Origin: an uncultured Chloroflexia bacterium | GTDB lineage: Bacteria > Chloroflexota > Dehalococcoidia > DSTF01 > JALHUB01 | Direction: 5' to 3' | DNA length: 64,000 bases | NCBI GenBank assembly: GCA_963703345.1 | Contig: OY969814.1 | Location: 1,504,001-1,568,000 of the forward strand | Shown here: positions 42,597-56,994 of the stretch, in pieces | How the letters are laid out: every line of letters starts with the position of its first letter | How positions within the stretch are numbered: the first letter of the stretch is position 1 | Translations under genes and position numbers: made by a program | The notes under the pieces: model-generated | The model's database searches: none | The model's input: the letters and a program-made list of their open reading frames with translations, nothing else | Told to the model about the DNA's origin: nothing

Positions 42597-45500
42597 ATGG
42601 CTGTATCTGACGAACCCAAGAAACCCGCCGTCTCCGTCAAGCTCTCGTCCGCTCAGGCGATCGCCTGGCTGAAGGCGAACTGGCCGCGCTACTGGGAGAT
42701 CGCCCTTTTCGCCGCCATAGTCGCCGTTGCCGCCGGGCTGCGCCTCTGGGACCTCGGCGCCCGCTCCTTCAACCACGACGAGAGCCTGCATGCCACCTAT
42801 AGCTGGTATCTCTTCAACGGCCAGGGCTACCAGCACGATCCCATGATGCACGGACCGTTTCAGTTCCACTTCAACGCCGTCTTGTGGAAGACCCTAGGCA
42901 TCATCAGCGCCGCGCCGCTTTTGAACAACTGGGTGAGCTGGGGCGTCAACGACTTCACCGCCCGCCTGCAGTACGCGATGTTCGGGACGGCGCTGGTCGC
43001 GCTGCCGTTCTTCTTCCGAAGCTATATCGGACGCTTAGGCGCCTTCCTCGCCGCCCTCTTCCTGACCTTCTCGCCCGTCTTGCTCTACTTCAGCCGCTTC
43101 GCCCGCAACGACATCATCATCGCCTTTTTCACGCTGGGAATCGTTATCTGCATCTGGCGCTACATGAGCGAGCGCCGCCCTCGCTATCTCTACCTCATCG
43201 CGGCTCTTCTGGCGCTGAGCTTTGCAACGAAGGAAACCACCTTCCTCACCGCAGCGATCCTGCTGCTCTTCCTTGACGTGTTCGTCGCTTGGGAGCTCGC
43301 GTCGGGAATGCGAGATCGCGCTGAGTCGACCGCCGCCGCCGTCGCTGAGCCGTCTCCCGATAAGGCGGCAACGACGCGGCGCGCCCGGCGAAAAGAGGTG
43401 GCGGCCGCACCGGCGAAAGCTGCGCCTCAGCCTCTGCACTGGGCACTCGTGTTCCTTCTGTTCGTCCCGTTTGCCTGGTTCATCGCCGCCGCCTGGCCTT
43501 TGATCGGCAAATGGCGCGCCCGCTGGGGTCTCGAGAAGCTGCCGCTCTCCGCCGACCTCTTGCTGATCGTCGGAACGCTGGCCGGTGTGCAGTTCGCGGC
43601 CGGCGTGCAGCTAATCCCGTTCGTCGGCGGCAAGGATGCCTACTACAAAGATCCGGGCGTCAACGAAGAGACGCTCATGAAGGTTGCCGTCTTCTCATTT
43701 CTCGTCGTCTCCGCCTACATAGGCTTTCTCTGGCGGCCGCGAACCTGGTTGATCTGCGCAAGTATCTTCTACGCTATCTTCGTGTTGCTCTACACGACCT
43801 TTTTCAGCAACATCGGTGGGCTCACTTTTGCAAAGGACGCCAGCGGATTCTGGCAAGGCGCGTTGGGAACCCTTGCTCTCTTGGCCTTCGTTGGACCCTC
43901 GCTGCTCCTGCTTTTTTCGCCTAATTCCCCTGAGGGATCACCGCACAAGTCAATTGAACGACAGTTGACATTGGCTGCCGGGATCGGATTCGCCGTGTTC
44001 GTTGTCGTTTTCCTGTTCGTCCTCGTCGACAATGGCTTCTGGTCCGGAATGTGGGGCTCGTTCGACTACTGGCTCAAGCAGCAGGGCGTCCAGCGCGGCA
44101 GCCAGCCGGTCTACTACTACATGATGATCCTGCCGATGTACGAGTTCCTGCCGCTGGTCCTGGCTATCATCGGCGCCGGCTGGTTCCTCTTGCGCCGGCA
44201 GTTCCTGCTGTCGCTTTCCGCCGTCGTCGGCGTCTGCATCCTGATATTCCTCTACTTCTGGGTCGGCGCCTCGCTGCCCACGCTGATCCCTATTCTCGTC
44301 ATCTTGGGCGCCGCCCTCTTCGCCTTCCGGATGGACCTGTTCACGACGTTCCTCATTTTCTGGGCCGGCGCCTCGCTCATCGCCTACGCCACCGCCGGCG
44401 AGAAGATGCCCTGGCTGACGGTTAACCTGACGCTGCCGCTAATCATCATCGCCGCCAAGTTCCTGAATACCCTCTTTGAGCGCTTCCGCATCCGCCTGCC
44501 CTTCGACTGGCGCAGCCCGGAGATACTCGTGCTCCTGGTGGCGGCCTGCGGCGCCCTGTCGATGATCATCCTTTGGCTGACCGCTTTCTCTGCGACCGGC
44601 GCCGTGCTGGCCGTGCTGCTTGGTGTGGTTGCCGCTGGTCTCATCGCCCGCGCCGTCATGCTCAGGGGAACGCTTCTCGGCGCACAGGCGGCGGTTGCCC
44701 TCCTTGTTCCGGCGTTGTTCATAATCACCGTTCGCGACTCATTCCGCGCCAACTTCCAGATCGGTGACTGGCCGCGGGAGATCCTCTCCTACGCCGACAC
44801 GTCGCCTGACCTGCCCATGGTGCGTGACCGGATCGTCGCCGCCGGCATCCAGAGCGGCCTTGGCAACGACTACCCAGTGTCCGCCGACAACGAAATCGCC
44901 TGGCCGATGGTCTGGTACTTCCGCAACTTCAACAAGGTTACGTGGAGCAGCGGAAGCATGACACCACCCATCTCGGGCAGCATCGTCCTCCTGAAGATAG
45001 ACCACCAGAGCTGGATGGACCCCTACCTCGACGACTACGACCCGCCGATTTCTATACGCCACCTGTGGTGGTTCGGCGACGGCCCGCAGTATTACGAGGG
45101 CATAAACGCCGGCGGCTTCGTCAAGGACCTCTTCGACACAAGCGTCTGGAACGTCTGGCGGAACTACTTCGTCTGGCGGCAAACGCCCTGGGCCCCGCCG
45201 CCCGACGACGCCCTGCTCTACATCCCGAAGTCGCTTGCCACCGGCACCAGCGCGCCGGTGAAAGGGGTGACGATACCTACCGTGACGGTCCCTCCCGCCA
45301 GTCAGCTTGTGATCGGCAGCCAGGGCTCCGGCAACGGCCAACTCGATGAGCCGACGGACGTGAGCGTCGACCAGGCGGGCAACATTTACGTTTCTGAGGG
45401 GCGCAACAACCGCATCCAGCTCTTTGACAAGGACGGAAAGTCGCTGCGCACGTTCCAGCCCAGCGGCGACGCCGCGCTCAACGAGCCATGGTCGGTCGCG

Positions 45501-46157
45501 GTCGCGCCTGACGGAAGCATCTACGTGTCCGATACCTGGAACAAGAACGTGGGCACCGGCATCGGCCAGGTTGTGAAGTACGACGCCAGCTTCAACATTG
45601 TCTGGAAATCGGATAAAACGATTGGTCTATACGGCCCGCGCGACATCCTCGTCTTACCCGACGGCAACGTTCTCGTCGCTGACACGGGCAACAAGCGGAT
45701 CGTCAAGCTCAGCGGAGCGGACGGTTCGCTTCTCGGCGCCTATGGAAGCGACGGCACCGGCCAGGGGCAGTTCAACGAGCCGGTCGGCCTGGCCCTCGGC
45801 CCCAACGGCAACATCTACGTCGCCGACACCTGGAACGGCCGCGTTCAAGTCTTTGACTCCAACTTCAAGTACCTGACGGAGTTCAAGGTCAAGGGCTGGG
45901 GCAGCCAGGAAGTCACGGCCAAGCCCTATCTCGCCGTGCTGCCCGACGGCCGCGTCATCCTTGGAAACCCGGCGAGTGGGCGCATAGAGTTGTACGGCGG
46001 CTTCGGGCAGGCGACGGCCGCCTGGGAGCTGCCCGCAGTCCAGGGCGTTAGCGGCCGGCCGGTCGGTATTGCGCTGGACGGAAAAGGCTTCCTGTACGTC
46101 GCCGATTGCAACGGCAACCGGGTATATCGGCTGCCGGTGAGCAGCCTGACGGGATAG
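42597..46157 (+). CDS. TIGR03663/Agl23-like PMT-type membrane protein with C-terminal NHL beta-propeller
   Basis: LRLWDLG..HDESLH, PMMHGP, YFSRFARND, TKET, RGSQP, EKMPW; NHL repeats (GQFNEP.G..YVADTWN.RVQVF). Confidence 0.82.
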   Translation: MAVSDEPKKPAVSVKLSSAQAIAWLKANWPRYWEIALFAAIVAVAAGLRLWDLGARSFNHDESLHATYSWYLFNGQGYQHDPMMHGPFQFHFNAVLWKTLGIISAAPLLNNWVSWGVNDFTARLQYAMFGTALVALPFFFRSYIGRLGAFLAALFLTFSPVLLYFSRFARNDIIIAFFTLGIVICIWRYMSERRPRYLYLIAALLALSFATKETTFLTAAILLLFLDVFVAWELASGMRDRAESTAAAVAEPSPDKAATTRRARRKEVAAAPAKAAPQPLHWALVFLLFVPFAWFIAAAWPLIGKWRARWGLEKLPLSADLLLIVGTLAGVQFAAGVQLIPFVGGKDAYYKDPGVNEETLMKVAVFSFLVVSAYIGFLWRPRTWLICASIFYAIFVLLYTTFFSNIGGLTFAKDASGFWQGALGTLALLAFVGPSLLLLFSPNSPEGSPHKSIERQLTLAAGIGFAVFVVVFLFVLVDNGFWSGMWGSFDYWLKQQGVQRGSQPVYYYMMILPMYEFLPLVLAIIGAGWFLLRRQFLLSLSAVVGVCILIFLYFWVGASLPTLIPILVILGAALFAFRMDLFTTFLIFWAGASLIAYATAGEKMPWLTVNLTLPLIIIAAKFLNTLFERFRIRLPFDWRSPEILVLLVAACGALSMIILWLTAFSATGAVLAVLLGVVAAGLIARAVMLRGTLLGAQAAVALLVPALFIITVRDSFRANFQIGDWPREILSYADTSPDLPMVRDRIVAAGIQSGLGNDYPVSADNEIAWPMVWYFRNFNKVTWSSGSMTPPISGSIVLLKIDHQSWMDPYLDDYDPPISIRHLWWFGDGPQYYEGINAGGFVKDLFDTSVWNVWRNYFVWRQTPWAPPPDDALLYIPKSLATGTSAPVKGVTIPTVTVPPASQLVIGSQGSGNGQLDEPTDVSVDQAGNIYVSEGRNNRIQLFDKDGKSLRTFQPSGDAALNEPWSVAVAPDGSIYVSDTWNKNVGTGIGQVVKYDASFNIVWKSDKTIGLYGPRDILVLPDGNVLVADTGNKRIVKLSGADGSLLGAYGSDGTGQGQFNEPVGLALGPNGNIYVADTWNGRVQVFDSNFKYLTEFKVKGWGSQEVTAKPYLAVLPDGRVILGNPASGRIELYGGFGQATAAWELPAVQGVSGRPVGIALDGKGFLYVADCNGNRVYRLPVSSLTG

Positions 46158-46196
46158 TAGCGGCTCTCACCGCATCATGAAGGTTAGGGGCGTCTC

Positions 46197-46856
46197 TTGG
46201 AAGCATTTCGTGAGATCGCCGATGCTATCCTTGCCTTCGCCGATCATCACCTCTACGGCGCCCTCTTCATGCTGCTCTTCGCGGAGGAGGCCGGCATACC
46301 GCTGCCCGCGCCCGGCGACACCGTAATCCTGCTCGCCGGTGCTCAGGTCGACAAGGGGCAGGCCAGCCTCCTCGTCGTTGTCCTCTTCGTCGTTGTGGCG
46401 ACGCTCCTCGGCTCGTCCATCCTCTATTGGATATCGCGACTGGGCGGCATGCCGGTCGTGTTGCGCGTCTGCCAATTCCTGCACATCAGGGAAGAGCGAC
46501 TGGAGAAGCCCGGCGCCTGGATCCGCCGCCACCGAGGCGTCGCCATCGTCTTCGGGCGCCTGACGCCGGGCCTGCGCACGGTGACGACGATTGCTGCGGG
46601 CGTCTTTCAGGTGAACTACGGCGCCTTCCTCGCCTACACCGCCGTCTCCGCGACCATCTGGGCGCTGCTCTACGTGCGGCTCGGCGCCTTTGTGCACGGC
46701 TCCTACCGGCACGTTGCCCACTACCTGTTTCGACCCAGCGTCCTGGGACTCGCCCTGCTCGCCTTCGTCATAGCCGCCGCTACCGTCGCCTTCCGACGCT
46801 GGCGCGCCGCCCGGGAGCGAGACCGCCTCCTGGGCGAATCGGCGCTGGTGCGTTGA
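46197..46856 (+). CDS. DedA family membrane protein
   Basis: EEAGIPLPAPGD, FGRLTPGLR. Confidence 0.9.
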   Translation: MEAFREIADAILAFADHHLYGALFMLLFAEEAGIPLPAPGDTVILLAGAQVDKGQASLLVVVLFVVVATLLGSSILYWISRLGGMPVVLRVCQFLHIREERLEKPGAWIRRHRGVAIVFGRLTPGLRTVTTIAAGVFQVNYGAFLAYTAVSATIWALLYVRLGAFVHGSYRHVAHYLFRPSVLGLALLAFVIAAATVAFRRWRAARERDRLLGESALVR

Positions 46857-46958
46857 CCCTCGTTTTCGCCTCCGCCTATAATGTGTCACGTAGCGCGTCC
46901 GATCCTTCTAGTAGACCCGTCATACTGAGGACCGACGCCCTGAAACCGAGGCTCTTCA

Positions 46959-48005
46959 TTGCTGCGTAGTCGACGCGTTTGGCTCGGGATGATCCTGAGC
47001 CTTGTTTTTCTGGCCTTCTTCATCTACCGTTCCCGCGGCGACCTGGGCGAGATCCCCGACGCCTTCGCCCACGCCAACTACTGGTGGGTAGCCGCGTCGA
47101 TACCGGTCTACTTCGCCGGCGCCTGGTTCCGAGCCTGGCGCTGGAAGTATCTAATGCGACCCCTCGGTGAGCTGCGAGTCACCGCGCTGTACCCCATCGT
47201 CATCATCGGATTCATGGCGAACAACCTCGTGCCCGCGCGCGCCGGCGAGTTTGTGCGCGCCTACGTCGTCGGCGAGCGCGAGAAGGTCAGCAAGATGGCC
47301 GCTCTCGGCACCATCGCCGTCGACCGCGTCTTCGACGGCATAACGCTGCTGCCGTTCCTGCTCGTCGTCGGCGCCATCTCCGGCGTCAACAGCGAGCTGC
47401 GGACCATCGCCATCTGGATGACGGCGATCTTCGGCCTTGGCCTCATCGTTCTCGTTGTCCTCGCTCTCTCCGAAGAGCTCAGCCGACGATTCATCGGGCT
47501 GGTGCTGCGCTTTGTCCCGGCGCGACTCAAGCCGAACGTGCGGACGCTGGCGGAGTCGTTCCTGACAGGCTTGCACTCCTTCCGCAGCCCGGTCGACATG
47601 TTCCTCGCCTCGGCGACCTCCGTCGCCTCCTGGCTGCTCGAAGCAACGATGTACTACATGGTCGGCCTCGCCTTCGGCCTCCATCTCGGATTCGACATCT
47701 ACCTGCTCATCTGCGCCGGCGCCAACCTGGCGATAGCCGTAATCGCTACTCAGGGCGGCGTCGGCCCGTTCGAGTTCGTCGCCCAGCAGACTGCCATCCA
47801 CTTCGGTGTTGCGTCGGGTCTTGCCTCCGCCTACGCCGTCGCGCTGCACGCCCTGGTGCTGCTGCCCGTCATCGCCGTCGGCCTCTACGCTCTGTGGGCC
47901 ATCAACCTCTCGCTGGGCCAAGTCCTCAGCGGCAGAGGCGCGACTCCGGCGACGGAGGGCGCTTCCTTGCAGCCGTCCCTGCGTGACGAGAGCGAGGCGC
48001 CGTGA
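46959..48005 (+). CDS. lysylphosphatidylglycerol-synthase TM / flippase-like protein
   Basis: RAWRW, GFMANNLVPARAGEFVR, DRVFDG, GGVGPFE. Confidence 0.85.
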   Translation: MLRSRRVWLGMILSLVFLAFFIYRSRGDLGEIPDAFAHANYWWVAASIPVYFAGAWFRAWRWKYLMRPLGELRVTALYPIVIIGFMANNLVPARAGEFVRAYVVGEREKVSKMAALGTIAVDRVFDGITLLPFLLVVGAISGVNSELRTIAIWMTAIFGLGLIVLVVLALSEELSRRFIGLVLRFVPARLKPNVRTLAESFLTGLHSFRSPVDMFLASATSVASWLLEATMYYMVGLAFGLHLGFDIYLLICAGANLAIAVIATQGGVGPFEFVAQQTAIHFGVASGLASAYAVALHALVLLPVIAVGLYALWAINLSLGQVLSGRGATPATEGASLQPSLRDESEAP

Positions 48006-49309
48006 AATACGGTATCGTCGGCGCCGGCATCGCGGGACTGACGGCCGCGCTTCGGCTGACGCAGAAGGGGCACGAGGTCGCCCTCTTCGAGGCGAGGCCG
48101 CAGCTCGGCGGCCAGGCGGGCACCTTCGAGTGCGGCGGCAACCGCCTGGAAGTCTTCTATCACCACCTGTTCAGCGGCGACAGCGACGTCATCGGCCTCA
48201 TCGACGAGATGGGCCTCGGCGACCGCATGAGCTGGCGCGAATCGAAGGTCGGCTTCTTCCACGGCGGCCGCATCTACAACTTCGTCACCCCCGGCGATCT
48301 CCTCCGCTTCAGCGCCGTCTCGCCCATCGACCGCGTCCGCCTCGGCCTCGTCGGCGTCTACCTGCGACGGCAGAAGAACTGGCGCCGCTACGAGGGTGTC
48401 ACCGCCGAGCAGTGGATCAAACGCTGGGCGGGCAAGCGCAACTACGAAGTCGTCTGGGGGCCGTTGTTGCGCGGCAAGTTCGGCTCCCGCGCCGCGGACG
48501 TCAGCATGGTCTGGTTCTGGGGGAAGATATTCCTTCGCTTCGCCTCCCGCGGCGGCGGCGTGTCGCAGAAGGAGCGGCTTGGCTATCTCATAGGCAGCTT
48601 CGGACTGCTGATCGACGCCCTCGCCGACCGTCTGCGACAGGCCGGCGCGCGCGTCGAAGCGGGCCGGCCCGTGGAGCGCGTCGTCGTCGAGAACGGGCGT
48701 GCCTGCGGCCTCCAGCTTGCCGGCGGCGAGACCGTCCCCTGCGACGCCGTCATCGCCACGGTGCCCAACGCCGCTTTCCTGGAGATGGCGCCCTTCCTGC
48801 CCGACGACTACGCCGGCTTGCTGCAAAGGGTCCAGTACCAATGGGCGAGCACGCTCGTCATGACGCTGAAGCAATCGCTCTCCCCCATCTACTGGCTGAA
48901 CATCAGCGACCCCGAGATACCGTTCGTGGGCGCCATCGAGCACACCAACTACATCGAGCCGGCGCAATACAACGGCCTGAACGTCCTCTACCTGTCGAAC
49001 TACGTCGAGGACTCCTCGCCGGTCGTCGGCATGAGCATCGACGAGATCAGCGACTACTATCTGCCGCACCTGACGAAGATCAACCCGGCCTTCTCCCGCG
49101 ACTGGATCATCGACCGCTGGCTGTTCAAGGACTCCGCCGGCCAGCCCGTCATAACGATGCACTACGGCGATTCGATTCCCTCGCACGAGACGCCCGTTCC
49201 GGGCCTCTACCTGGCGAACACCACGCAGATCTACCCGGAAGACCGCGGCCTCAACTACTCCGTCCGCCTCGGCGACAAGATCGCCTCCTTCGTGACATCC
49301 ACCGATTAG
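48002..49309 (+). CDS. NAD(P)/FAD-dependent oxidoreductase (amine oxidase/protoporphyrinogen oxidase-like)
   Basis: GAGIAGL, LGGQA, FYHHLF, QIYPEDRGLN. Confidence 0.88.
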   Translation: MKYGIVGAGIAGLTAALRLTQKGHEVALFEARPQLGGQAGTFECGGNRLEVFYHHLFSGDSDVIGLIDEMGLGDRMSWRESKVGFFHGGRIYNFVTPGDLLRFSAVSPIDRVRLGLVGVYLRRQKNWRRYEGVTAEQWIKRWAGKRNYEVVWGPLLRGKFGSRAADVSMVWFWGKIFLRFASRGGGVSQKERLGYLIGSFGLLIDALADRLRQAGARVEAGRPVERVVVENGRACGLQLAGGETVPCDAVIATVPNAAFLEMAPFLPDDYAGLLQRVQYQWASTLVMTLKQSLSPIYWLNISDPEIPFVGAIEHTNYIEPAQYNGLNVLYLSNYVEDSSPVVGMSIDEISDYYLPHLTKINPAFSRDWIIDRWLFKDSAGQPVITMHYGDSIPSHETPVPGLYLANTTQIYPEDRGLNYSVRLGDKIASFVTSTD

Positions 49310-49337
49310 ACGTTGCGCTAAGCTATTCGCGCTCCTA

Positions 49338-49366
49338 TTGACAGCGTGCGATCTGTCGGCTACAAT
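49338..49366 (+). promoter_or_regulatory. near-consensus sigma70 promoter with overlapping palindrome
   Basis: TTGACA-17nt-TACAAT; GACAG-N8-CTGTC at 49340-49357. Confidence 0.75.
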
Positions 49367-49420
49367 GCGGCCAGCACGTACGTTCGCCTCAACCATCCAG
49401 GCAGAAAAGAGGGATCTGAA

Positions 49421-49714
49421 ATGGCTGATAAAACTGACCTACTCGTCCAGCGGCTGGACGCTATCCTTGAGCGCCTTGACATGCTTCTGGTTTGCGCGGT
49501 GCCCCCGTTGGCGGATGCGAAAGGGGAACTCGGCAAAGTGGAGAGCGCGATCCTCGGGCTCTGCGATCTTCAGCACACCTGCGAGGAGATTGCCGCGCGC
49601 ATCGGCAAGGGCAAGAACCACGTTGAAGTTACCTTGACCAAGCTGCGAAGAAAAGGGCTGGTCAGGAGTGTCAAGAGCAACGGACGCGTGGTCTACCTCA
49701 GATCCAGGACATAG
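49421..49714 (+). CDS. small winged-helix protein
   Basis: GAGGG RBS; amphipathic N-terminal helix, then TCEEIAARIGK..VEVTLTKLRRKGLV..GRVVY. Confidence 0.8.
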   Translation: MADKTDLLVQRLDAILERLDMLLVCAVPPLADAKGELGKVESAILGLCDLQHTCEEIAARIGKGKNHVEVTLTKLRRKGLVRSVKSNGRVVYLRSRT

Positions 49715-49723
49715 GAGGTCGTC

Positions 49724-50095
49724 ATGACGAACGAAAGCATTGGGCCCTCTGCCGAAATTGCCGAGCTTCTTCGCGAGCTGATCGCTTGGACACGGTTTCA
49801 AGCCTTGCCGGGTTTGAAAAAGATCTTGGAGACCGAGCTAAGTGAGGACAGGAAGCGTGTGGTCTACGAGTTGACCGATGGGTCAAGGGCCGGGCGGGAT
49901 GTTGGGGACCTAGCTGGTGTCCCGTCCAGGACGGTTCATAATTGGTGGGAACGCTGGTTCGAACTAGGAATCGTTAAACAGAGCCGCAGCCGGCCGGGCA
50001 GAATGGAGAGATTATGTTCGCTGAAGGACGTAGGTATTGAGGTCTCAACACCCCGTGGCAAGGAAATCATCGAGCAGGATGCGCCAGCAGGCTAG
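49724..50095 (+). CDS. small HTH/winged-helix protein
   Basis: AGGAGG RBS; VYELTDGSR..RDVGDLAGVPSRTVHNWW.RW..LGIV. Confidence 0.78.
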   Translation: MTNESIGPSAEIAELLRELIAWTRFQALPGLKKILETELSEDRKRVVYELTDGSRAGRDVGDLAGVPSRTVHNWWERWFELGIVKQSRSRPGRMERLCSLKDVGIEVSTPRGKEIIEQDAPAG

Positions 50096-50939
50096 CAAGC
50101 CCCGCCGGGCTAAGAACGACGCCCAGCTAGCAGAAGCTGGACATGGTTTCCGTCTCGTAATGCAGACGGTTCGGGAGTATGTCTTCACCACTCATCGGTT
50201 CCCCCAGGTGGCAGACCTATCCAAGCTCACCAAGATCCACCCCAAGAAGTGTCACGCCATTTGCGACACACTCGTTGGGCAAAGGCAGTTGTACGTTGCG
50301 TTCGGAGGTGAGGGCAGGGGGTCGCCCAAGGTTGTCGTTCCGTGTGACATGATGCAATCCATGCTTAGAACTCAAGCAAGGCCAGAGTGGATCTCCAAGT
50401 ACGAGCTTCCGGAAAGGGCGGAGTTTGTCCGCAAACTAGAGGACCTGCAGACCCAATTGTCTGAGGTTGAACAGATGGAGCGATTGCTGTACTTGACGGA
50501 TATTCCCCTGGAAGAGGCGGTGGCTTCAACACTCCAATGGCTTGGGTTTTCAGATGTACGTCATCATCAAGATGTTACTGACAATCCGGACATAACCTTC
50601 ACCCACAATGGAGTGTGCGCGATTGTTGAGGTTCAAGGTCCATCTGGGCCCGGGGACAAGGAGAAGGTATTACAGCTTCAAGGATGGCTAAATCGTGCCA
50701 TCGGCGAAGGCAAGCGCGCAAGCGAGATTCGCGGTTTCTACGTCCTCAATCACTACCGCGAGGTTGATCCTGAAGCGAGAAGGCCACCGCTAACAGCCCA
50801 CGCGAAGGAGCAGCTTCGGCTTTTTCATGGCAAGCTCTTGACAACAGTATCGCTGTTCGACATCGCCTGCCAGGTCAAGCGCGGGAAGCTCGCCAAAGAG
50901 AAGGCGCGCGACCGAGTGTGGAAAGGCGATGCTGCCTAG
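50079..50939 (+). CDS. wHTH + coiled coil + PD-(D/E)xK-like nuclease domain protein
   Basis: LEEAV...L.WLGF, PDITF, IVEVQG, QL.GW, GFYVLNHYR; start uncertain (50079 or 50160). Confidence 0.7.
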   Translation: MRQQASKPRRAKNDAQLAEAGHGFRLVMQTVREYVFTTHRFPQVADLSKLTKIHPKKCHAICDTLVGQRQLYVAFGGEGRGSPKVVVPCDMMQSMLRTQARPEWISKYELPERAEFVRKLEDLQTQLSEVEQMERLLYLTDIPLEEAVASTLQWLGFSDVRHHQDVTDNPDITFTHNGVCAIVEVQGPSGPGDKEKVLQLQGWLNRAIGEGKRASEIRGFYVLNHYREVDPEARRPPLTAHAKEQLRLFHGKLLTTVSLFDIACQVKRGKLAKEKARDRVWKGDAA

Positions 50940-51026
50940 CCCCCTGAGTGCCTGTCCGTTCGAGGGAGCCTCCACCGGCTGCTCTCGTTGATGTAGAATA
51001 GGCCAGACTCTTCCGAGAGGCCGGCC

Positions 51027-53657
51027 GTGACCCCAATCCGACGCCAGTACCTCGACATCAAGCGGCGCTACCCCCACGCCATCGTCCTCTTCCGCCTCGG
51101 CGACTTCTACGAGACGTTCGACGACGACGCCAAGCTCTGCGCCCGCGAGCTCGACATAACTCTAACTTCGAAGCCGATGGGCAAGAACCTGCGCGTCCCC
51201 CTCGCCGGCATTCCCTACCACGCCCTCGACGGCTACCTGGCGCGGCTCATCGGCAAGGGCTACAAGGTCGCGGTCTGTGAGCAGATGGGCGATCCGGCGA
51301 CGGCGAAAGGCTTGGTCGACCGCCAGGTGGTGCGCGTGGTCACCCCGGGCACGGTCATCGAAGGCCACCTGCTCGACGAGCGCGCCAACAACTATCTCGT
51401 CGCCCTGGCCGTCGGGCCGCTGCCGAAGGACCGTCGCCGCAGCAGCGAACCGCCGCAGGCCGGAATCGCCTACGTCGACATCAGCACCGGCGAGTTCGCC
51501 GCCGCCCAACTGGATGCCGACGCCGTCGCCGCTGAGCTCTCGCGCCTGCGACCGGCGGAGCTTCTCCTGCCCGAAGGCCTCGACCCGCCCGTCGCCGGTC
51601 TGCCGCTGACGCGCGTCGAGCCCGCCTGCTTCGAGCTCGATACGGCGACCGCGCTCCTGCTCGAACACTTCGGCGTCGCCTCGCTGGCCGCCTTCGGCTT
51701 GGACCAGATGCCCCTGGCGGCTTGCGCGGCCGGCGCCGTCCTCCAGTACTTGCGTGAAAACCAGAAGACCGCGCTCAGCCACGTGGCCGCCCTCTCCGTC
51801 TACAACCCGACGCGCTTCATGCTCCTCGATGCCCAGACGCGCCGCAACCTGGAGCTCTTCAGCGGCAGCCCTGGCCTAGCGGCAGGCAGGCGCGATGGCG
51901 ACCGGCACAATTCGCTCCTCGACGTGCTCGACCTGACGCGGGCCGCCCTCGGCGCACGCCTCCTCCGACGCTGGCTCGGGCAGCCGCTGCTCGACCTCGA
52001 CGCCATCCGCGAGCGCCAGGACGGCGTCGCCTGGTTCCACGAGAGCGCCGTCCGACGCGGCGCCGCCGGCGAAGTGCTCGCCGGGATGCCCGACTTCGAG
52101 CGCCTGCTCAGCCGCATGGCCGGCGGCGTCGCCCTGCCGCGCGAGCTCGTCGCTCTTCGGCGCGGCCTTGAGATGGTGCCCGCCCTGCGCGACGCTCTTG
52201 TCGAAGGAAAGGGCTCCGAAGCCGTCGCTGCCATGCTCGCCCGCCTCGACCCCTGCGACGAGACAGCCGCCCTCATCGCCCGCGCCATCGACGACGAGCC
52301 GGCCGGCGACCCGCAGGACGGCGGCGTGGTGCGCGCGGCCTTCTCGCCGGAGCTCGACGAGTTGCGTATCGTCACCCGCGACGTGCGCCGCTACCTCGCC
52401 GAGCTGGAGGCTGCGGAGCGCGCCCGTAGCGGCATCAAGACGCTCAAGATAGGCTACAACCGCGTATTCGGCTACTACATCGAAGTCAGCCGGCCACACC
52501 TGGCGCTCGTTCCGGACGACTACCAGCGCCGTCAGACGCTCGTCGGCGGCGAGCGCTTTGTGACCGAGCAACTCAAGGAGTACGAGAGCCGCATTCTCAA
52601 CGCCCGCGAGCGCATCGGCGAGCTGGAGTCCGGCATCTTCCGGCAAGTCTGCGCCCAGGTTGCCGCCGAAGGCAAACGACTGCTCGCGCTGGCCGCCGCA
52701 GTCGCCGCCATCGACGTGCATCTCGCCTTCGCCGAAGCCGCCGCCCGTTACGGCTACTGCCGGCCGGAACTTTCCGACGACGGCGAAATCGTTATCCGCG
52801 ACGGCCGTCATCCTTCGGTCGAGCGCGCCCTCGGCACCGCCGGCGCCTTCGTCCCCAACGACGTTCATCTCTCGAACGCCGACGCCCAGATAATCGTGCT
52901 GACCGGACCCAACATGGCCGGCAAGTCCACCTACCTGCGTCAGGTCGCGCTCACCGTCCTCATGGCCCAGATCGGCAGCTTCGTGCCTGCAGCTTCCGCC
53001 CGCATCGGCCTCGTCGACCGCATCTTCACGCGGGTCGGCGCGCAGGAAGACATAGCCTCCGGCCAATCGACGTTCATGGTGGAGATGCTGGAGACCGCGA
53101 ACATCCTGCACAACGCCACGCCGCGCTCCCTCGTCATCCTGGACGAGATCGGCCGCGGCACCAGCACCTACGACGGCATGGCCATCGCCCGCGCCGTCGT
53201 CGAGTACCTGCACAATCGCAGCGAGCGGGCGGCAAAGACGCTGTTCGCTACCCACTACCACGAACTCGTGGCGCTGGCGCAGACGCTGCCCAAAGTGAAG
53301 AACTACAACGTCGCCGTCACCGAAGAAGGGGGAAAGATCGTCTTCCTGCACCGCATCGTCCCCGGCGGCGCCGACAAGAGCTACGGCATCCACGTCGCCG
53401 AGCTGGCGGGGCTGCCGAAGGCGGTGGTCCAGCGCGCCCACGACGTCCTCGCCGCTCTTGAATCGCAGGCCAACGGGCGGCGGCCGGCTGCGCGCTCCAG
53501 CCAGACCGCAGCGGAGCAACTCCCGCTTCTCGCCGCGCCGTCGCCTCTCCTGGGCGAGCTCGCGCTAATCGACGTCGACGCCATGACGCCCCTGGAAGCG
53601 ATAACGAAACTCTACGAGCTGCGCAAGAAGGCGCGCGAAGACGACGCCTCGGCGTAG
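51027..53657 (+). CDS. mutS: DNA mismatch repair protein MutS
   Basis: TPIRRQY, FRLGDFYE, TGPNMAGKSTYLRQ, DEIGRGTST, SYGIHVA. Confidence 0.97.
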   Translation: MTPIRRQYLDIKRRYPHAIVLFRLGDFYETFDDDAKLCARELDITLTSKPMGKNLRVPLAGIPYHALDGYLARLIGKGYKVAVCEQMGDPATAKGLVDRQVVRVVTPGTVIEGHLLDERANNYLVALAVGPLPKDRRRSSEPPQAGIAYVDISTGEFAAAQLDADAVAAELSRLRPAELLLPEGLDPPVAGLPLTRVEPACFELDTATALLLEHFGVASLAAFGLDQMPLAACAAGAVLQYLRENQKTALSHVAALSVYNPTRFMLLDAQTRRNLELFSGSPGLAAGRRDGDRHNSLLDVLDLTRAALGARLLRRWLGQPLLDLDAIRERQDGVAWFHESAVRRGAAGEVLAGMPDFERLLSRMAGGVALPRELVALRRGLEMVPALRDALVEGKGSEAVAAMLARLDPCDETAALIARAIDDEPAGDPQDGGVVRAAFSPELDELRIVTRDVRRYLAELEAAERARSGIKTLKIGYNRVFGYYIEVSRPHLALVPDDYQRRQTLVGGERFVTEQLKEYESRILNARERIGELESGIFRQVCAQVAAEGKRLLALAAAVAAIDVHLAFAEAAARYGYCRPELSDDGEIVIRDGRHPSVERALGTAGAFVPNDVHLSNADAQIIVLTGPNMAGKSTYLRQVALTVLMAQIGSFVPAASARIGLVDRIFTRVGAQEDIASGQSTFMVEMLETANILHNATPRSLVILDEIGRGTSTYDGMAIARAVVEYLHNRSERAAKTLFATHYHELVALAQTLPKVKNYNVAVTEEGGKIVFLHRIVPGGADKSYGIHVAELAGLPKAVVQRAHDVLAALESQANGRRPAARSSQTAAEQLPLLAAPSPLLGELALIDVDAMTPLEAITKLYELRKKAREDDASA

Positions 53658-53771: not shown

Positions 53772-55178
53772 TTAGTTCTTCGTGACGGCGGTCAGCCCAA
53801 GTTGATACGACTTGCCCTCGAGCGCCTTGTCAAGCTGGATGAGTCCCGCCCCGTCCCAGCCGTGGAATACGCTGTCCGGCAGGGGCAGAGCCGTCTTCAC
53901 CATCAGGGCCTCCACTTGGTCCGGCGTCAACACGCGCCCCGACGACAACAGCAACGCCGCCGCCCCCGACACCAGCGCCGTGGAAAACGAAGTGCCGTCG
54001 CTCATGGCATAAGGTTCGCTGCCGAAGCAGGTCCAGCGCGCGCAGAACTTCGCCGGGACGGTACTCGCAATGTCCACGCCCGGCGCAGTCACGGTCACCT
54101 CCGGCCCCCAATTGCTGAACCACGCCTTGCCGCGGATCGTGCTGTGGTCGCTCGCCGAGACGGCGATCACATTATCGTAGCGAGCGGGCGCCAGGACCTG
54201 GTTGCCGCCTGTATTTCCCGTCGCCGCGACGATCGTCACGCCGTAGCGGTCGTGGGCCTCGTTGACCGCGTCGTGCAAGGGGGTTGAATCCAGTTGCGAT
54301 GTGAAGCTTATATTGATAACGCTAGCCCCGGCCTTCGCTGCGTATTCGATGCCCTCGGCCGCCTCCAGCCCCGTCGCCAGACCCTGGCAGTCAAGCACCT
54401 TGACAGGCATGATCGTGACGTTCGGCGCTACGCCAATGACGCCGATGCCGTTGTTTCCCCGCGCGGCGATGATCCCGGCGACGAAGGTGCCGTGCCCATC
54501 ATCGTCGTCGATGTTGCCGTTGGGCGGGTCCTGCGGCGCAGGGCATGCCTGCGAACTGCGCACGTAGTTGCAGCCGTGAACGTCGTCCACACAGCCGTTG
54601 CCGTCGTCATCGACGCCGTTCCCGGCGATCTCGCCGCGGTTCGTCCAGATTGCGTCTTTCAGGTCGGGATGAGTAATGTCCACGCCCGTATCGAGCACAG
54701 CGACGACGATGTATGGCTTGCCGGTCTCCACGTCCCAGGCCTTCGGCGCGCCGATGGCGTCGTAGTACCACTGCTGCCGGCCGACGTAGAACGGATCGTT
54801 CGGCGTCATGTCCGCCCGCACGATTGCGTTCGGCTCCGCGTACTCGACCTGCGGCAGGGAGCGATAACGCTGCGCCGCGGCCTGAGTGGAAATGCCGGGT
54901 TCCACCGCCACCAGCGACACGCCGAGGTCACTCACTTTGCTCACTTCCTTCGACCCGACGGTGCCGTTTACTATCCGCTCAGCGGCGGCAACCATCGGCT
55001 GACGATACTTCACGACGAGCTGGCCCGGCACGGCGGCCGGCAGATCCGGCGCGCCGTTTGCCTGTGATAGGCGGAGAGATGGCAGCGGATCGCAGACGGG
55101 TCCGACAGCAAGATAGGCGGCTAGGACTGCCGCCGGAAAAAAGATCAGCAGAGCTACGCGCTTGCGACCAGGCGCCAT
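53772..55178 (-). CDS. S8 (subtilisin-like) serine peptidase, exported
   Basis: signal/TM segment, VAVLDTG, GHGTFVAG, GTSFS triad. Confidence 0.93.
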   Translation of the reverse strand: MAPGRKRVALLIFFPAAVLAAYLAVGPVCDPLPSLRLSQANGAPDLPAAVPGQLVVKYRQPMVAAAERIVNGTVGSKEVSKVSDLGVSLVAVEPGISTQAAAQRYRSLPQVEYAEPNAIVRADMTPNDPFYVGRQQWYYDAIGAPKAWDVETGKPYIVVAVLDTGVDITHPDLKDAIWTNRGEIAGNGVDDDGNGCVDDVHGCNYVRSSQACPAPQDPPNGNIDDDDGHGTFVAGIIAARGNNGIGVIGVAPNVTIMPVKVLDCQGLATGLEAAEGIEYAAKAGASVINISFTSQLDSTPLHDAVNEAHDRYGVTIVAATGNTGGNQVLAPARYDNVIAVSASDHSTIRGKAWFSNWGPEVTVTAPGVDIASTVPAKFCARWTCFGSEPYAMSDGTSFSTALVSGAAALLLSSGRVLTPDQVEALMVKTALPLPDSVFHGWDGAGLIQLDKALEGKSYQLGLTAVTKN

Positions 55179-55272
55179 CCTCACCTCCCCGCAATGCCCA
55201 CGTTCGCCTCCTATACGTTACATCGGATGCTCCCGAGGGGCAAGGGGCGAACGTTATGCTAGAATGGCGTCG

Positions 55273-56994
55273 ATGAGCCGCCCCAATGCTATCCAAAAGC
55301 TGCCGCCGCTGGTGATCGGCAAGATCGCCGCCGGCGAGGTCATCGAGCGCCCAGCTTCCGCCGTGAAGGAGCTGCTGGAGAACGCCCTCGACGCCGGCGC
55401 CCGCCAGGTGAGCATCGAAATCGGCAGGGGCGGCCTCGACCTGATCCGCATCGCCGACGACGGCTGCGGCATTGCGCCCGACGATCTGGCCCTCGCCTTC
55501 GAGCGCCACGCCACTAGCAAGCTCTTCAGCGATGCCGATCTCGACGCCATATCGACCCTCGGCTTCCGCGGCGAAGCGCTGCCCAGCATCGCCGCCGTCG
55601 CCGACGTCGAGCTGCTTTCCCGACCCGTCGACGCCGCCGGCGGTCGCTTCGTCACTCTCCGCGACGGCCGCGTCACGGACAGCGGCGACAACGGGACATC
55701 TCCCGGCACTATCGTCAGCGTTCGGCATCTCTTCAGCCGCCAGCCCGCGCGACTCAAGTTCCTGCGCTCGCCCGCAGCCGAGGCCGCGCAGATCGCCGCC
55801 GTCGTAAGCCACTACGCGCTCGCCTATCCCGAGGTTCGCGTCACGCTCCTCACCGATGGTCGCCTCACCCTGCGCACGCCCGGTAGCGGCGATCTCCTCG
55901 ATGCAGCGGCCGGCGTTTACGGGCATCAGGTGGCTCGCTCCCTCCTGCCGCTCTCCGCGTCCGCCGCCGTATCGCGGTCCGTGTTGCCCTCCTTTGAAGG
56001 GCTGATAGGCGATCCCGGTGTCTCCAGGGCTAATCGCAACTACATAACGCTTTTCATCAACCGGCGCTGGGTGCGCAACCGCGCCCTGACCTACGCTATC
56101 GAGGAGGCCTATGAGGGCTTTCTCATGACCGGCCGACATCCTCTCGCCGTTGTCGACGTCCGCCTGGTTCCGACCGACGTCGATGTCAACGTCCACCCCT
56201 CGAAGCTTGAAGTGCGCCTCCGCAACGAGCGCGAAGTGTTCGCCCTGTTGCAGCGACAGGTGCGGCGCACTCTGACCCAACGCGCGCCAACGCCCGCCGG
56301 CACAGGGACGACGTCCTGGCCCGGCCGTCCGCGTCCTTCGCTCCCCGACAAGCCGATTGAACCTGCGCCCCTCCCGCTGGAGCCCCCTGCCACCGCCCCG
56401 GTGGCCGAGCAGCCGCTGCTCGCGCCGTCCCTGCCCGTCCTACGACCGCTCGGCCAGGTCGGCTCGCTCTACGTCGTCGCCGAGGGCCCGGAAGGGCTCT
56501 ACCTCGTCGACCAGCACGCCGCCCACGAGCGCATCCTCTTCGAACGCTTCCTGAAAACTGACGCAGCTCCCGACGCCCAGGGGCTGCTGGAACCCGTCGC
56601 CGTCGAGCTGGCGCCGCGCCAGCAGGCGCTCGTCGAAGAGATGGCACAGGAGCTCTCCGACCAGGGCTTTTCGCTGGAGCCGTTCGGCGAGCGCAGCTTC
56701 CTCGTGCGCTCTGTTCCCGCCGCGATGGCCGCCGCCGACGTCGCGACGGCGCTCGTCGAGTTCCTCGACGCCCTGGCCCGCGAAGAGGCCGTTCCGGATC
56801 GCCGGCGGCGCGTTGCTACGTCGCTCGCCTGCCATTCCGCCATCCGCGCCGGCCAGACGCTCAGCGCCGAGGAGATGCGCGAACTGCTGCGCCAGCTCGA
56901 GCAAACGGAGAACCCGCGCCACTGCCCGCACGGCCGCCCCACGATGGTCCACCTCAGCGCCGACGACCTCGCCCGCGAGTTCCGCCGCCGCTAA
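55273..56994 (+). CDS. mutL: DNA mismatch repair endonuclease MutL
   Basis: IAAGEVIERPASAVKELLEN, RHATSK, GFRGEAL, DQHAAHER, CPHGRP. Confidence 0.97.
   Translation: MSRPNAIQKLPPLVIGKIAAGEVIERPASAVKELLENALDAGARQVSIEIGRGGLDLIRIADDGCGIAPDDLALAFERHATSKLFSDADLDAISTLGFRGEALPSIAAVADVELLSRPVDAAGGRFVTLRDGRVTDSGDNGTSPGTIVSVRHLFSRQPARLKFLRSPAAEAAQIAAVVSHYALAYPEVRVTLLTDGRLTLRTPGSGDLLDAAAGVYGHQVARSLLPLSASAAVSRSVLPSFEGLIGDPGVSRANRNYITLFINRRWVRNRALTYAIEEAYEGFLMTGRHPLAVVDVRLVPTDVDVNVHPSKLEVRLRNEREVFALLQRQVRRTLTQRAPTPAGTGTTSWPGRPRPSLPDKPIEPAPLPLEPPATAPVAEQPLLAPSLPVLRPLGQVGSLYVVAEGPEGLYLVDQHAAHERILFERFLKTDAAPDAQGLLEPVAVELAPRQQALVEEMAQELSDQGFSLEPFGERSFLVRSVPAAMAAADVATALVEFLDALAREEAVPDRRRRVATSLACHSAIRAGQTLSAEEMRELLRQLEQTENPRHCPHGRPTMVHLSADDLAREFRRR

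Follow-up and report, generated by a model that had tools for sequence, protein, structure and literature searches.

What is encoded by the three small genes that separate an oxidoreductase gene from mutS in the genome of an uncultured Chloroflexia bacterium (Dehalococcoidia; contig OY969814.1)? The question was addressed in a window of 64,000 nucleotides (nt; contig positions 1,504,001 to 1,568,000, forward strand). Positions given below are those of the window unless they follow an L-number; L-, G- and P-numbers denote the loci, genomes and proteins of a comparison set. An earlier note on this DNA had proposed a candidate new system of three winged-helix proteins, one of them carrying a restriction-like nuclease. 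The cassette is a minimal, recently gained member of an apparently undescribed modular family, in which a row of small helix-winged-helix proteins accompanies an exchangeable enzyme; the architecture is well supported, and the function is inferred.

A predicted nuclease behind two small genes

The cassette consisted of three tightly packed genes on the + strand, with a gene for a flavin adenine dinucleotide (FAD)-dependent oxidoreductase on one side and mutS on the other. Gene 1 (49421..49714; 97 amino acids, aa) encoded an N-terminal amphipathic helix plus a predicted winged helix, and belonged to array subfamily F5; gene 2 (49724..50095; 123 aa) encoded a long N-terminal helix and an ArsR-like winged helix (subfamily F0). 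Gene 3 (50079..50939; 286 aa, or 259 aa from the ATG at 50160) encoded a winged helix, a linker helix and a PD-(D/E)xK domain of FokI/BspD6I type. The ATG at 50079 is the more likely start of gene 3, because the protein collection calls it so, because relatives have the extension, and because the resulting 17-nt overlap with gene 2 recurs in 9 of 124 junctions of related arrays.

The structural model of gene 3, which drew on 19 sequences, had a predicted local distance difference test score (pLDDT) of 86.8 and placed a winged helix at residues 1-70, a long helix at 84-107 and then the PD-(D/E)xK domain. FokI was its best Foldseek match (E = 2e-6, over about 300 columns). In VIA-align, the cutting domain was closest to the small subunit of R.BspD6I (Z = 12.4, root-mean-square deviation (rmsd) = 2.9, 143 residues aligned) and to FokI (Z = 12.0, rmsd = 3.3, about 142 aligned), followed by AF1548, NucS and Hna (NucS/EndoMS, Z = 10.6); residues 1-70 matched winged helices. 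The restriction-like fold, on which the earlier proposal had been staked, was therefore recovered through the matches to FokI and R.BspD6I, as was the winged-helix-like N-terminus, but the 'coiled coil' described between them was one long helix in the monomer model. With regard to type IV (modification-dependent), Mrr-like enzymes, which have Mrr_cat or a modified-base reader domain (SRA, EVE, PUA, McrB-N), gene 3 gave no Pfam or PADLOC match near the cut-off; distant long-form relatives matched Mrr_cat, below the cut-off (E about 0.005), and MspJI and AspBHI matched the cutting domain only (Z about 8). The winged helix of gene 3 could still read modified DNA.

The active site was located at P-D144...E157-x-Q159 (numbering of the 259-aa form), with D144 present in 69 and E157 in 67 of 70 relatives. 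Position 159, usually a lysine in such enzymes, was E in 31 relatives, K in 23 and Q in 6, while K167, Q172, W176, N197 and R207 were conserved across the same 70. According to the available part of PMC4081073, BamHI has E in place of this lysine, and BglII and NotI have Q, from which it follows that the gene 3 site can be active; the site is intact, and nuclease activity is predicted.

No Pfam, PADLOC, NCBIfam or PHROGs family matched gene 3 above the cut-off; its best PADLOC-DB 2.0 match had E = 0.027, and 22 further relatives were without a match at E = 0.001. Fifty-two clusters among 1.84 billion representatives matched gene 3 at E ≤ 1e-30, mostly full-length proteins or fragments. At E = 0.001 there were 2483 scoring proteins; among the best 150 of these, those below the top set were mostly proteins of 350-500 aa sharing only the helix and cutting domain. 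No relative was found among 30 pattern matches in IMG/VR viral contigs, and plasmids and phages each yielded one partial match, to the cutting module only.

Gene 2 was modelled (pLDDT 87) as a 31-residue N-terminal helix followed by the ArsR-like winged helix; VIA-align matched it to CzrA (Z = 8.2, rmsd = 3.5, 82 aligned) and Csa3 (Z = 7.6), and Foldseek gave no match at E = 0.001. The winged helix of gene 1 is predicted from Pfam matches that were all sub-threshold (best E = 2e-4) and from profile similarity to the gene 2 family (hhalign probability 97%). By this comparison the two genes are distant paralogues, with gene 1 in a sister subfamily. The helix-plus-winged-helix architecture previously assigned to both was upheld by the model for gene 2 and is predicted from profile similarity for gene 1.

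Library searches of genes 1 and 2 returned nothing above cut-off in Pfam, PADLOC, NCBIfam or PHROGs. Their PADLOC-DB 2.0 matches were weak and only to the winged helices of CARF/Csa3 models; NCBIfam HTH_metalloreg gave gene 1 a score of 14.8 bits (cut-off 55) and gene 2 no such match. One distant array member, at L116, passed Pfam HTH_5. A PDB sequence search with the family profiles produced only weak winged-helix matches; a match to KEOPS Pcc1 over 40 residues was taken as chance. The small families showed no significant alignment with the winged helix of gene 3 itself. The closest relatives of gene 1 were at L021, L022 and L001 (Bathyarchaeota), and a gene-1-type profile searched against 301 genomes of the phylum (E = 1e-9) found the own genome only. 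Subfamily F0, that of gene 2, was the commonest partner of the nuclease; a weak search through 576 candidates detected neither longer nor fused forms of gene 2, and it also missed a known fusion (P0024, below).

Arrays of small genes with exchangeable enzymes

Genome scanning reduced 141 pattern matches to two nuclease loci (in a Bathyarchaeota and in a Dehalococcoidia metagenome-assembled genome, MAG), and metagenome scanning reduced 386 matches to 60; with the window, these made 63. A small helix-winged-helix gene adjoined the nuclease in 60 of the 63, once as a fusion, and the other three were limited by contig ends (L037 stops 57 nt after the nuclease gene, L075 and L080 inside it). Gene 2 alone, used with phmmer, found relatives in 46 of the 63, and two more genomes from separate searches (G464 and G656) also had arrays. 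The small genes formed four mutually related subfamilies (hhalign probability 96-97% for four pairs out of six, with the remaining pairs at 46% and 5%). They occurred in many gene orders, in archaeal as well as bacterial contexts, and every array with at least 400 nt of flank on both sides (19/19) held 2-8 of them. Packing was tight throughout: 103 of 124 gene junctions fell within -20 to +15 nt and 51 were overlaps of 4 nt, as counted by a method that takes the nearest start and so favours short gaps. The nuclease tree comprised 43 rows with 40 different sequences, and one supported clade of 14 rows contained both the window nuclease and the Dehalococcoidia MAG.

Co-conservation of the three genes, an element of the earlier proposal, held insofar as the nuclease was strictly linked to small winged-helix genes, but the number (2-8), subtype and order of these varied. 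A fixed three-gene system was rejected on this account, and because arrays also occurred with other effectors. At L061:120-1274 a gene-2 relative and the nuclease were fused in frame into a protein of 384 aa (P0024).

Relatives from whole genomes that share only the cutting module, mostly long forms, served as a control. None had an array gene within 1.5 kb of the match, either in the host's order (0/17) or in an archaeal sample (0/6), while both full-length forms in the latter had arrays; the flanks were short for this comparison, such that distant arrays would be missed. A large family of roughly 350-500 aa (L004-L020, P0074-P0171) had this helix-plus-cutting module behind a different N-terminal domain, which by eye resembled a Rossmann or glutamine-amidotransferase fold. 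Of 100 relative genomes, 17 had these long forms and none of them beside an array; the members scanned had no PADLOC match and no Pfam match above cut-off.

Searches were also begun from the small genes. In the phylum to which a Bathyarchaeota genome belongs, 17 of 401 genomes matched at E = 1e-4, of which eight were dropped as ordinary or unrelated helix-turn-helix (HTH) proteins, one was a lone shortened gene (G829) and eight were arrays. Two arrays carried this nuclease (one being the anchor genome), three a Swt1-like HEPN protein, one a winged-helix-Schlafen protein and one a 262-aa gene with a PD-(D/E)xK-like motif identified by eye; the last had no enzyme inside, and an sbcCD-like pair upstream. 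One HEPN array also had an HNH gene, and another an EVE-GmrSD-Schlafen gene directly downstream (a 909-aa fusion at L125:2772-5501). The 262-aa gene (L121:8686-9474) was coupled to a five-gene array and had no library match; a gene of the OLD family (ATPase-TOPRIM) lay upstream. In the host's class, gene-2 relatives were found in 3 of 401 genomes: the own genome, one with an array and nuclease, and one where the array accompanied a predicted membrane protein. HEPN and Schlafen are families known as ribonucleases (RNases), and the HEPN effectors had no detectable profile similarity to gene 3; neither this comparison nor that of the small families with the winged helix of gene 3 pointed to a common docking domain. 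Linkage being strict in one direction while the enzymes vary, it appears that the nuclease needs the array and the array does not need this nuclease. Since unrelated deoxyribonucleases (DNases) and RNases sit under one kind of array, shared control, rather than shared targeting, is the simplest common factor.

The cassette was also compared with known systems. FokI and the small subunit of R.BspD6I are alike in the fold of the cutting domain and in having a winged-helix-type domain and long linker helix before it; however, where they have a full recognition module gene 3 has a single winged helix; it is 10-18% identical to them, has E-x-Q/E in place of (D/E)-x-K, lacks a conserved methylase and always stands beside an array of small genes. 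Because no methylase lies beside the nuclease, the cassette does not correspond to restriction-modification. Controller (C) proteins, which are single XRE-type HTH proteins, are likewise encoded by small genes that precede a nuclease gene and are coupled to it, with palindromes at the promoter, and they too bind DNA. The available part of PMC4081073 describes them as timing nuclease synthesis after transfer. The cassette family differs in that it lacks a methylase and has 2-8 winged-helix paralogues, of several subtypes, to either side of an exchangeable enzyme.

Type II toxin-antitoxin and regulated abortive-infection modules were used as a general kind for comparison, and share small overlapping genes, a strong promoter with operator-like palindromes, a predicted toxic effector of nuclease type and effector exchange. 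The arrays differ from them in that each enzyme is accompanied by several putative antitoxins or regulators, and no Pfam, NCBIfam or PADLOC family matched above cut-off; two-gene toxin-antitoxin is excluded because all 19 complete arrays have 2-8 small genes. Regulators of the ArsR/SmtB and Csa3/CasR types have the winged-helix fold of gene 2 and weak profile matches to gene 1, but neither the extra long N-terminal helix nor the tandem paralogue arrays, while the cassette proteins have no CARF domain and match nothing above curated cut-offs. Swt1-like HEPN proteins in or beside four scanned arrays matched PDC-M34B (E = 1e-22 to 1e-53), the B subunit of the PADLOC candidate PDC-M34; the window has no HEPN gene, and no small array protein matched the PDC-M34A model. 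This candidate is unmentioned in the available part of the main text of 10.1101/2024.01.29.577857, and the literature search did not return it either.

In the profile search of PADLOC-DB 2.0 the component proteins matched no catalogued system, and the earlier note had not recognised the composition as a named one. A literature search of titles and abstract starts, with subscription journals and preprint supplements outside its scope, found no description of these arrays, and there was none in the available parts of 10.1101/2024.01.29.577857, PMC6563490, 10.1101/2024.02.06.579148 and PMC3710099. A link to ESCRT was discarded, the available part of 10.1101/2024.02.06.579148 containing nothing relevant. 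The probable novelty of the family rests on its architecture and on these negative library and literature searches.

Neighbouring genes were surveyed at 21 longer loci, where 74 of 86 called proteins were scanned with Pfam and 38 of these with PADLOC. Defence-type neighbours, whose enrichment the earlier note had proposed to check, were present at many loci. The survey identified restriction genes of types I and IIG, Shedu, SLATT, Swt1-like HEPN, HNH and PDC-S31, along with integrases, solo Cas1, Cdc6-like genes and a resolvase; OLD and EVE-GmrSD-Schlafen genes also lay near arrays. Many loci had only housekeeping or unknown neighbours. Methylase domains occurred among the 74 proteins only at L039 (a type IIG fusion) and L040 (type I plus a solo N6/N4 enzyme), and no methylase was conserved across the array loci. 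Solo Cas1 genes flanked arrays in two unrelated archaeal-type loci (L045:6603-7745 and L119:9079-10311). Repair or recombination genes beside arrays comprised mutS (window, 51027; L021), rarA/mgsA (L116:1071-2435, L117:5649-6983), sbcCD-like pairs (L118:10925-14814, L120:3497-7047), ruvX (L028:4843-5268) and a photolyase gene (L123:4858-6300), a pattern recognised post hoc and without a control.

Insertion site, promoter and candidate operators

The cassette occupied inserted DNA of approximate extent 49297..50980, with the oxidoreductase gene before it and the promoter region of mutS after it. Relatives in the 90% cluster of this oxidoreductase carry the label Dehalococcoidia, which makes that the likely class of the host. 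In seven of eight same-genus genomes the site was empty, the oxidoreductase gene running straight into the mutS promoter region, and comparison with these by blastn put the breakpoints at 49287-49301 and 50972-50989, so that the edges are approximate. The eighth genome (G003) had a different gene there, of 199 aa and without a Pfam match (L143:2995-3594); its N-terminus we take, by eye, to be SeqA-like. Of two further same-family genomes, one contig ended and the other had another gene at the site, which may be a hot spot for variable genes. The same three-gene cassette followed the same oxidoreductase gene on two metagenome contigs, L021 (then mutS) and L022 (where the contig soon ends). Contigs from one DNA sequencing run, which may be the source sample, spanned parts of the three genes and linked gene 3 to mutS; no RNA run was listed as containing the cassette.

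No target duplication, flanking repeat or integrase was found at the insertion; a 14-nt repeat at 49263/51091 was rejected as a target-site duplication because it sits within both flanking genes. Neither a methylase nor an integrase was present among open reading frames at 43-57 kb, and the absence of methylase, integrase and flanking repeat stated in the earlier note was accordingly borne out. The last codons of the oxidoreductase gene differed from those at empty sites; together with the lack of an integrase or target duplication, this suggests that the cassette was gained by recombination.

The G+C content (GC) of the cassette was 56.0%, compared with 64.4% for the genome, which placed it in the lowest 0.7% of the genome's 1.6-kb windows, and third-position GC (GC3) was 63-72% in the cassette genes against 88-92% in both flanking genes. 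The low GC first remarked upon was real, but the 43-53% given for it was too low, since the 27 lines of 60 nt ranged from 42% to 65%; a mutS line had been put at 78%, and the average for mutS was 69%. Low GC and GC3 and the empty sites in same-genus genomes support a recent horizontal acquisition, as had been proposed.

The remaining flanks (42597-49309 and 53772-56994) were ordinary, with genes for a membrane glycosyltransferase-like protein with NHL repeats, a DedA/VTT protein, a lysylphosphatidylglycerol-synthase-like protein, the FAD oxidoreductase, an S8 peptidase and a mutL-like protein (mutL by eye).

An own promoter and tight gene spacing, also claimed previously, were confirmed: a sigma-70-type promoter, TTGACA-17-TACAAT, lay at 49338..49366 on the + strand with 11 of 12 consensus matches, and the genes adjoin or overlap. 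It was the sole such site within 49200-51100. Shuffled sequence yielded 0.9 sites with at least 9 of 12 matches, so that the match count alone is within chance; the promoter was also retained ahead of the same cassette in L021 and L022. A palindrome scan identified the inverted repeat GACAG-N8-CTGTC (49340..49357), which spans the -35 box and spacer and is a weak candidate operator; it had one mismatch in L021, and its 5-bp arms could arise by chance. A second candidate operator was the palindrome ACGTACGT (49376..49383), shortly after the -10 box. It was identical in L021, and in L022 the same place was taken by CCGTAC-AAAT-GTACGG, such that the window and its two nearest relatives all had a palindrome after the -10 box.

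In one clade, the palindrome T[CT]AAA-N5/6-TTGA followed -10 boxes directly, and 11 of its 19 pattern matches in 236 kb were within 260 nt upstream of the nuclease, the pattern having been derived from those same sites. At L023-L026, L028, L036, L075 and L080 a promoter unit was tandemly duplicated about 54 nt apart, about 200 nt upstream of the nuclease, and this palindrome followed each -10 box. In this tandem-promoter clade (10 sequences) the recognition helix of gene 2 was mostly conserved and its variability not unusual (p = 0.12).

A second clade, of 16 gene-2 relatives, differed. Its N-terminal helix was the most conserved part (mean entropy 0.43 bits; other segments of the core, 0.67-1.2), and four positions of the recognition helix were among the most variable of 96 (ranks 1, 3, 10 and 7; permutation p = 6e-5), having been picked after the variability data were seen. 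Positions of this kind in HTH proteins contact bases. Amino-acid-changing differences at the four were about as frequent as silent ones, and 3-5 times as frequent as in the rest of the core; with 104 of 120 pairs showing silent differences above 0.65, these pairwise counts are near saturation and do not establish positive selection. The pattern fits self-repression with operator specificity that may have drifted between lineages, and fits changing target specificity or relaxed selection also.

Possible restraint or targeting by the small proteins

The reading favoured here, tentatively and with a probability of roughly two in five, is that of a guarded-toxin module against viruses: the small proteins would assemble with one another, would act as repressors of their operon and would hold back a toxic enzyme that can be swapped. 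It is preferred because unrelated DNases and RNases share the array and because there is no conserved methylase; the strict linkage of nuclease and array, the palindromes by the -10 boxes, the conserved N-terminal helix, the overlapping genes and the defence-type neighbours also speak for it. Overlapping genes would supply the subunits in matched amounts, and the conserved N-terminal helices would join them into a mixed oligomer. By binding an operator within the strong promoter region, and possibly also the effector or the DNA site of the effector, the winged helices would keep nuclease activity low without methylation. Infection would lift the block, whether because host synthesis is shut off, because the virus makes a DNA mimic or because its DNA competes; the nuclease, which like FokI would have to pair for cleavage of both strands, would then cut DNA, and the infection would be stopped or the cell killed. 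The earlier note had proposed a heteromeric complex that senses DNA or restrains the nuclease; both the complex and the choice between these roles are inferred.

Several observations weigh against this reading. One repressor suffices for self-repression, which leaves up to eight paralogues of fixed subtypes unexplained. The linkage of 60 in 63 was established with small-gene profiles built from these same loci, and overstates independent support because the loci include near-duplicates and related clades. One array had no enzyme inside (G702), and one genome had only the lone shortened gene-2 relative (G829). Many loci, the window, L021, L022, L025, L028 and L001 included, are surrounded by housekeeping genes, and the flanks that were read contain no further recognised defence gene; the counts of defence neighbours elsewhere stand without a background rate. 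The window palindromes are short and their spacing differs from that of L022, and the palindrome scan revealed no operator common to the whole family.

A broader claim, that the family is an undescribed class of immunity in which 2-8 paralogues form mix-and-match complexes, act as a combinatorial device for sensing or targeting DNA and switch on whichever enzyme is plugged in (FokI-like DNase, HEPN RNase, Schlafen or HNH), is somewhat doubtful. If true, the version with the FokI-like enzyme would be a modular nuclease of natural origin that takes its target from separate and rapidly changing subunits.

Targeting alone, as in a split FokI, with the small proteins as separate DNA-recognition subunits that assemble with the nuclease and steer it to foreign DNA, is an unlikely account, though it would explain both the paralogues and the variable recognition helix; changes to the array, or to the four recognition-helix residues, would then alter the target. 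The position of FokI as top Foldseek match, and of FokI and the R.BspD6I small subunit as nearest to the cutting domain, speak for it. So does the dependence of the latter on its partner, since the available part of PMC3017599 has the small subunit working only in a complex. Relatives without the N-terminal winged helix lack an array (0/23), the 16-sequence clade varies in its recognition helix, and at L061 the two proteins are fused. Set against this, no conserved methylase protects the host, leaving self-protection unexplained, and the same arrays serve HEPN and Schlafen enzymes, for which DNA targeting is unneeded. The variability, which did not extend to the 10-sequence clade, could reflect relaxed selection, and the fusion is a single, long-branch case that may have required only one indel at an ATGA overlap.

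Arrays that lack this nuclease and have one of various other enzymes, or no enzyme at all, would also be expected if arrays were self-regulating or chromatin-type modules of mobile elements, into which defence enzymes insert to use the promoter. Small-protein clusters in the ESM Atlas had 380, 709 and 143 members, compared with 81 for the nuclease cluster, and integrases, Cdc6-like and solo Cas1 genes adjoin several arrays. This explanation is nonetheless improbable: wherever contigs permitted a check the nuclease was with an array (60/60), in archaeal and bacterial contexts and many gene orders, and the three genes arrived here alone, without a mobile-element gene. A module for DNA repair or damage response, its array sensing damaged or branched DNA and its nuclease acting in repair or damage-triggered death, is more improbable still, for although the repair genes beside arrays and the match to NucS/EndoMS would suit it, the former pattern is post hoc and uncontrolled, and patchy presence (the cassette in 0/8 same-genus genomes, gene-2 relatives in 3/401 genomes of the class) together with enzyme swapping is typical of conflict genes, not repair genes.

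The defence systems of Dehalococcoidia, and of uncultured archaea such as Bathyarchaeia and their relatives, are poorly known, and the family described here has an unusual design that spans two domains of life, a variable row of paralogous winged-helix proteins being combined with an exchangeable enzyme. The window cassette is the smallest complete form seen, with three genes in about 1.6 kb under a sigma-70 promoter, and its size and promoter make direct testing in E. coli possible. Should the small proteins restrain the enzyme, the system would be a guarded toxin of a new type; should they aim it, the cassette would be a natural, modular FokI-like nuclease, of possible value as a tool.

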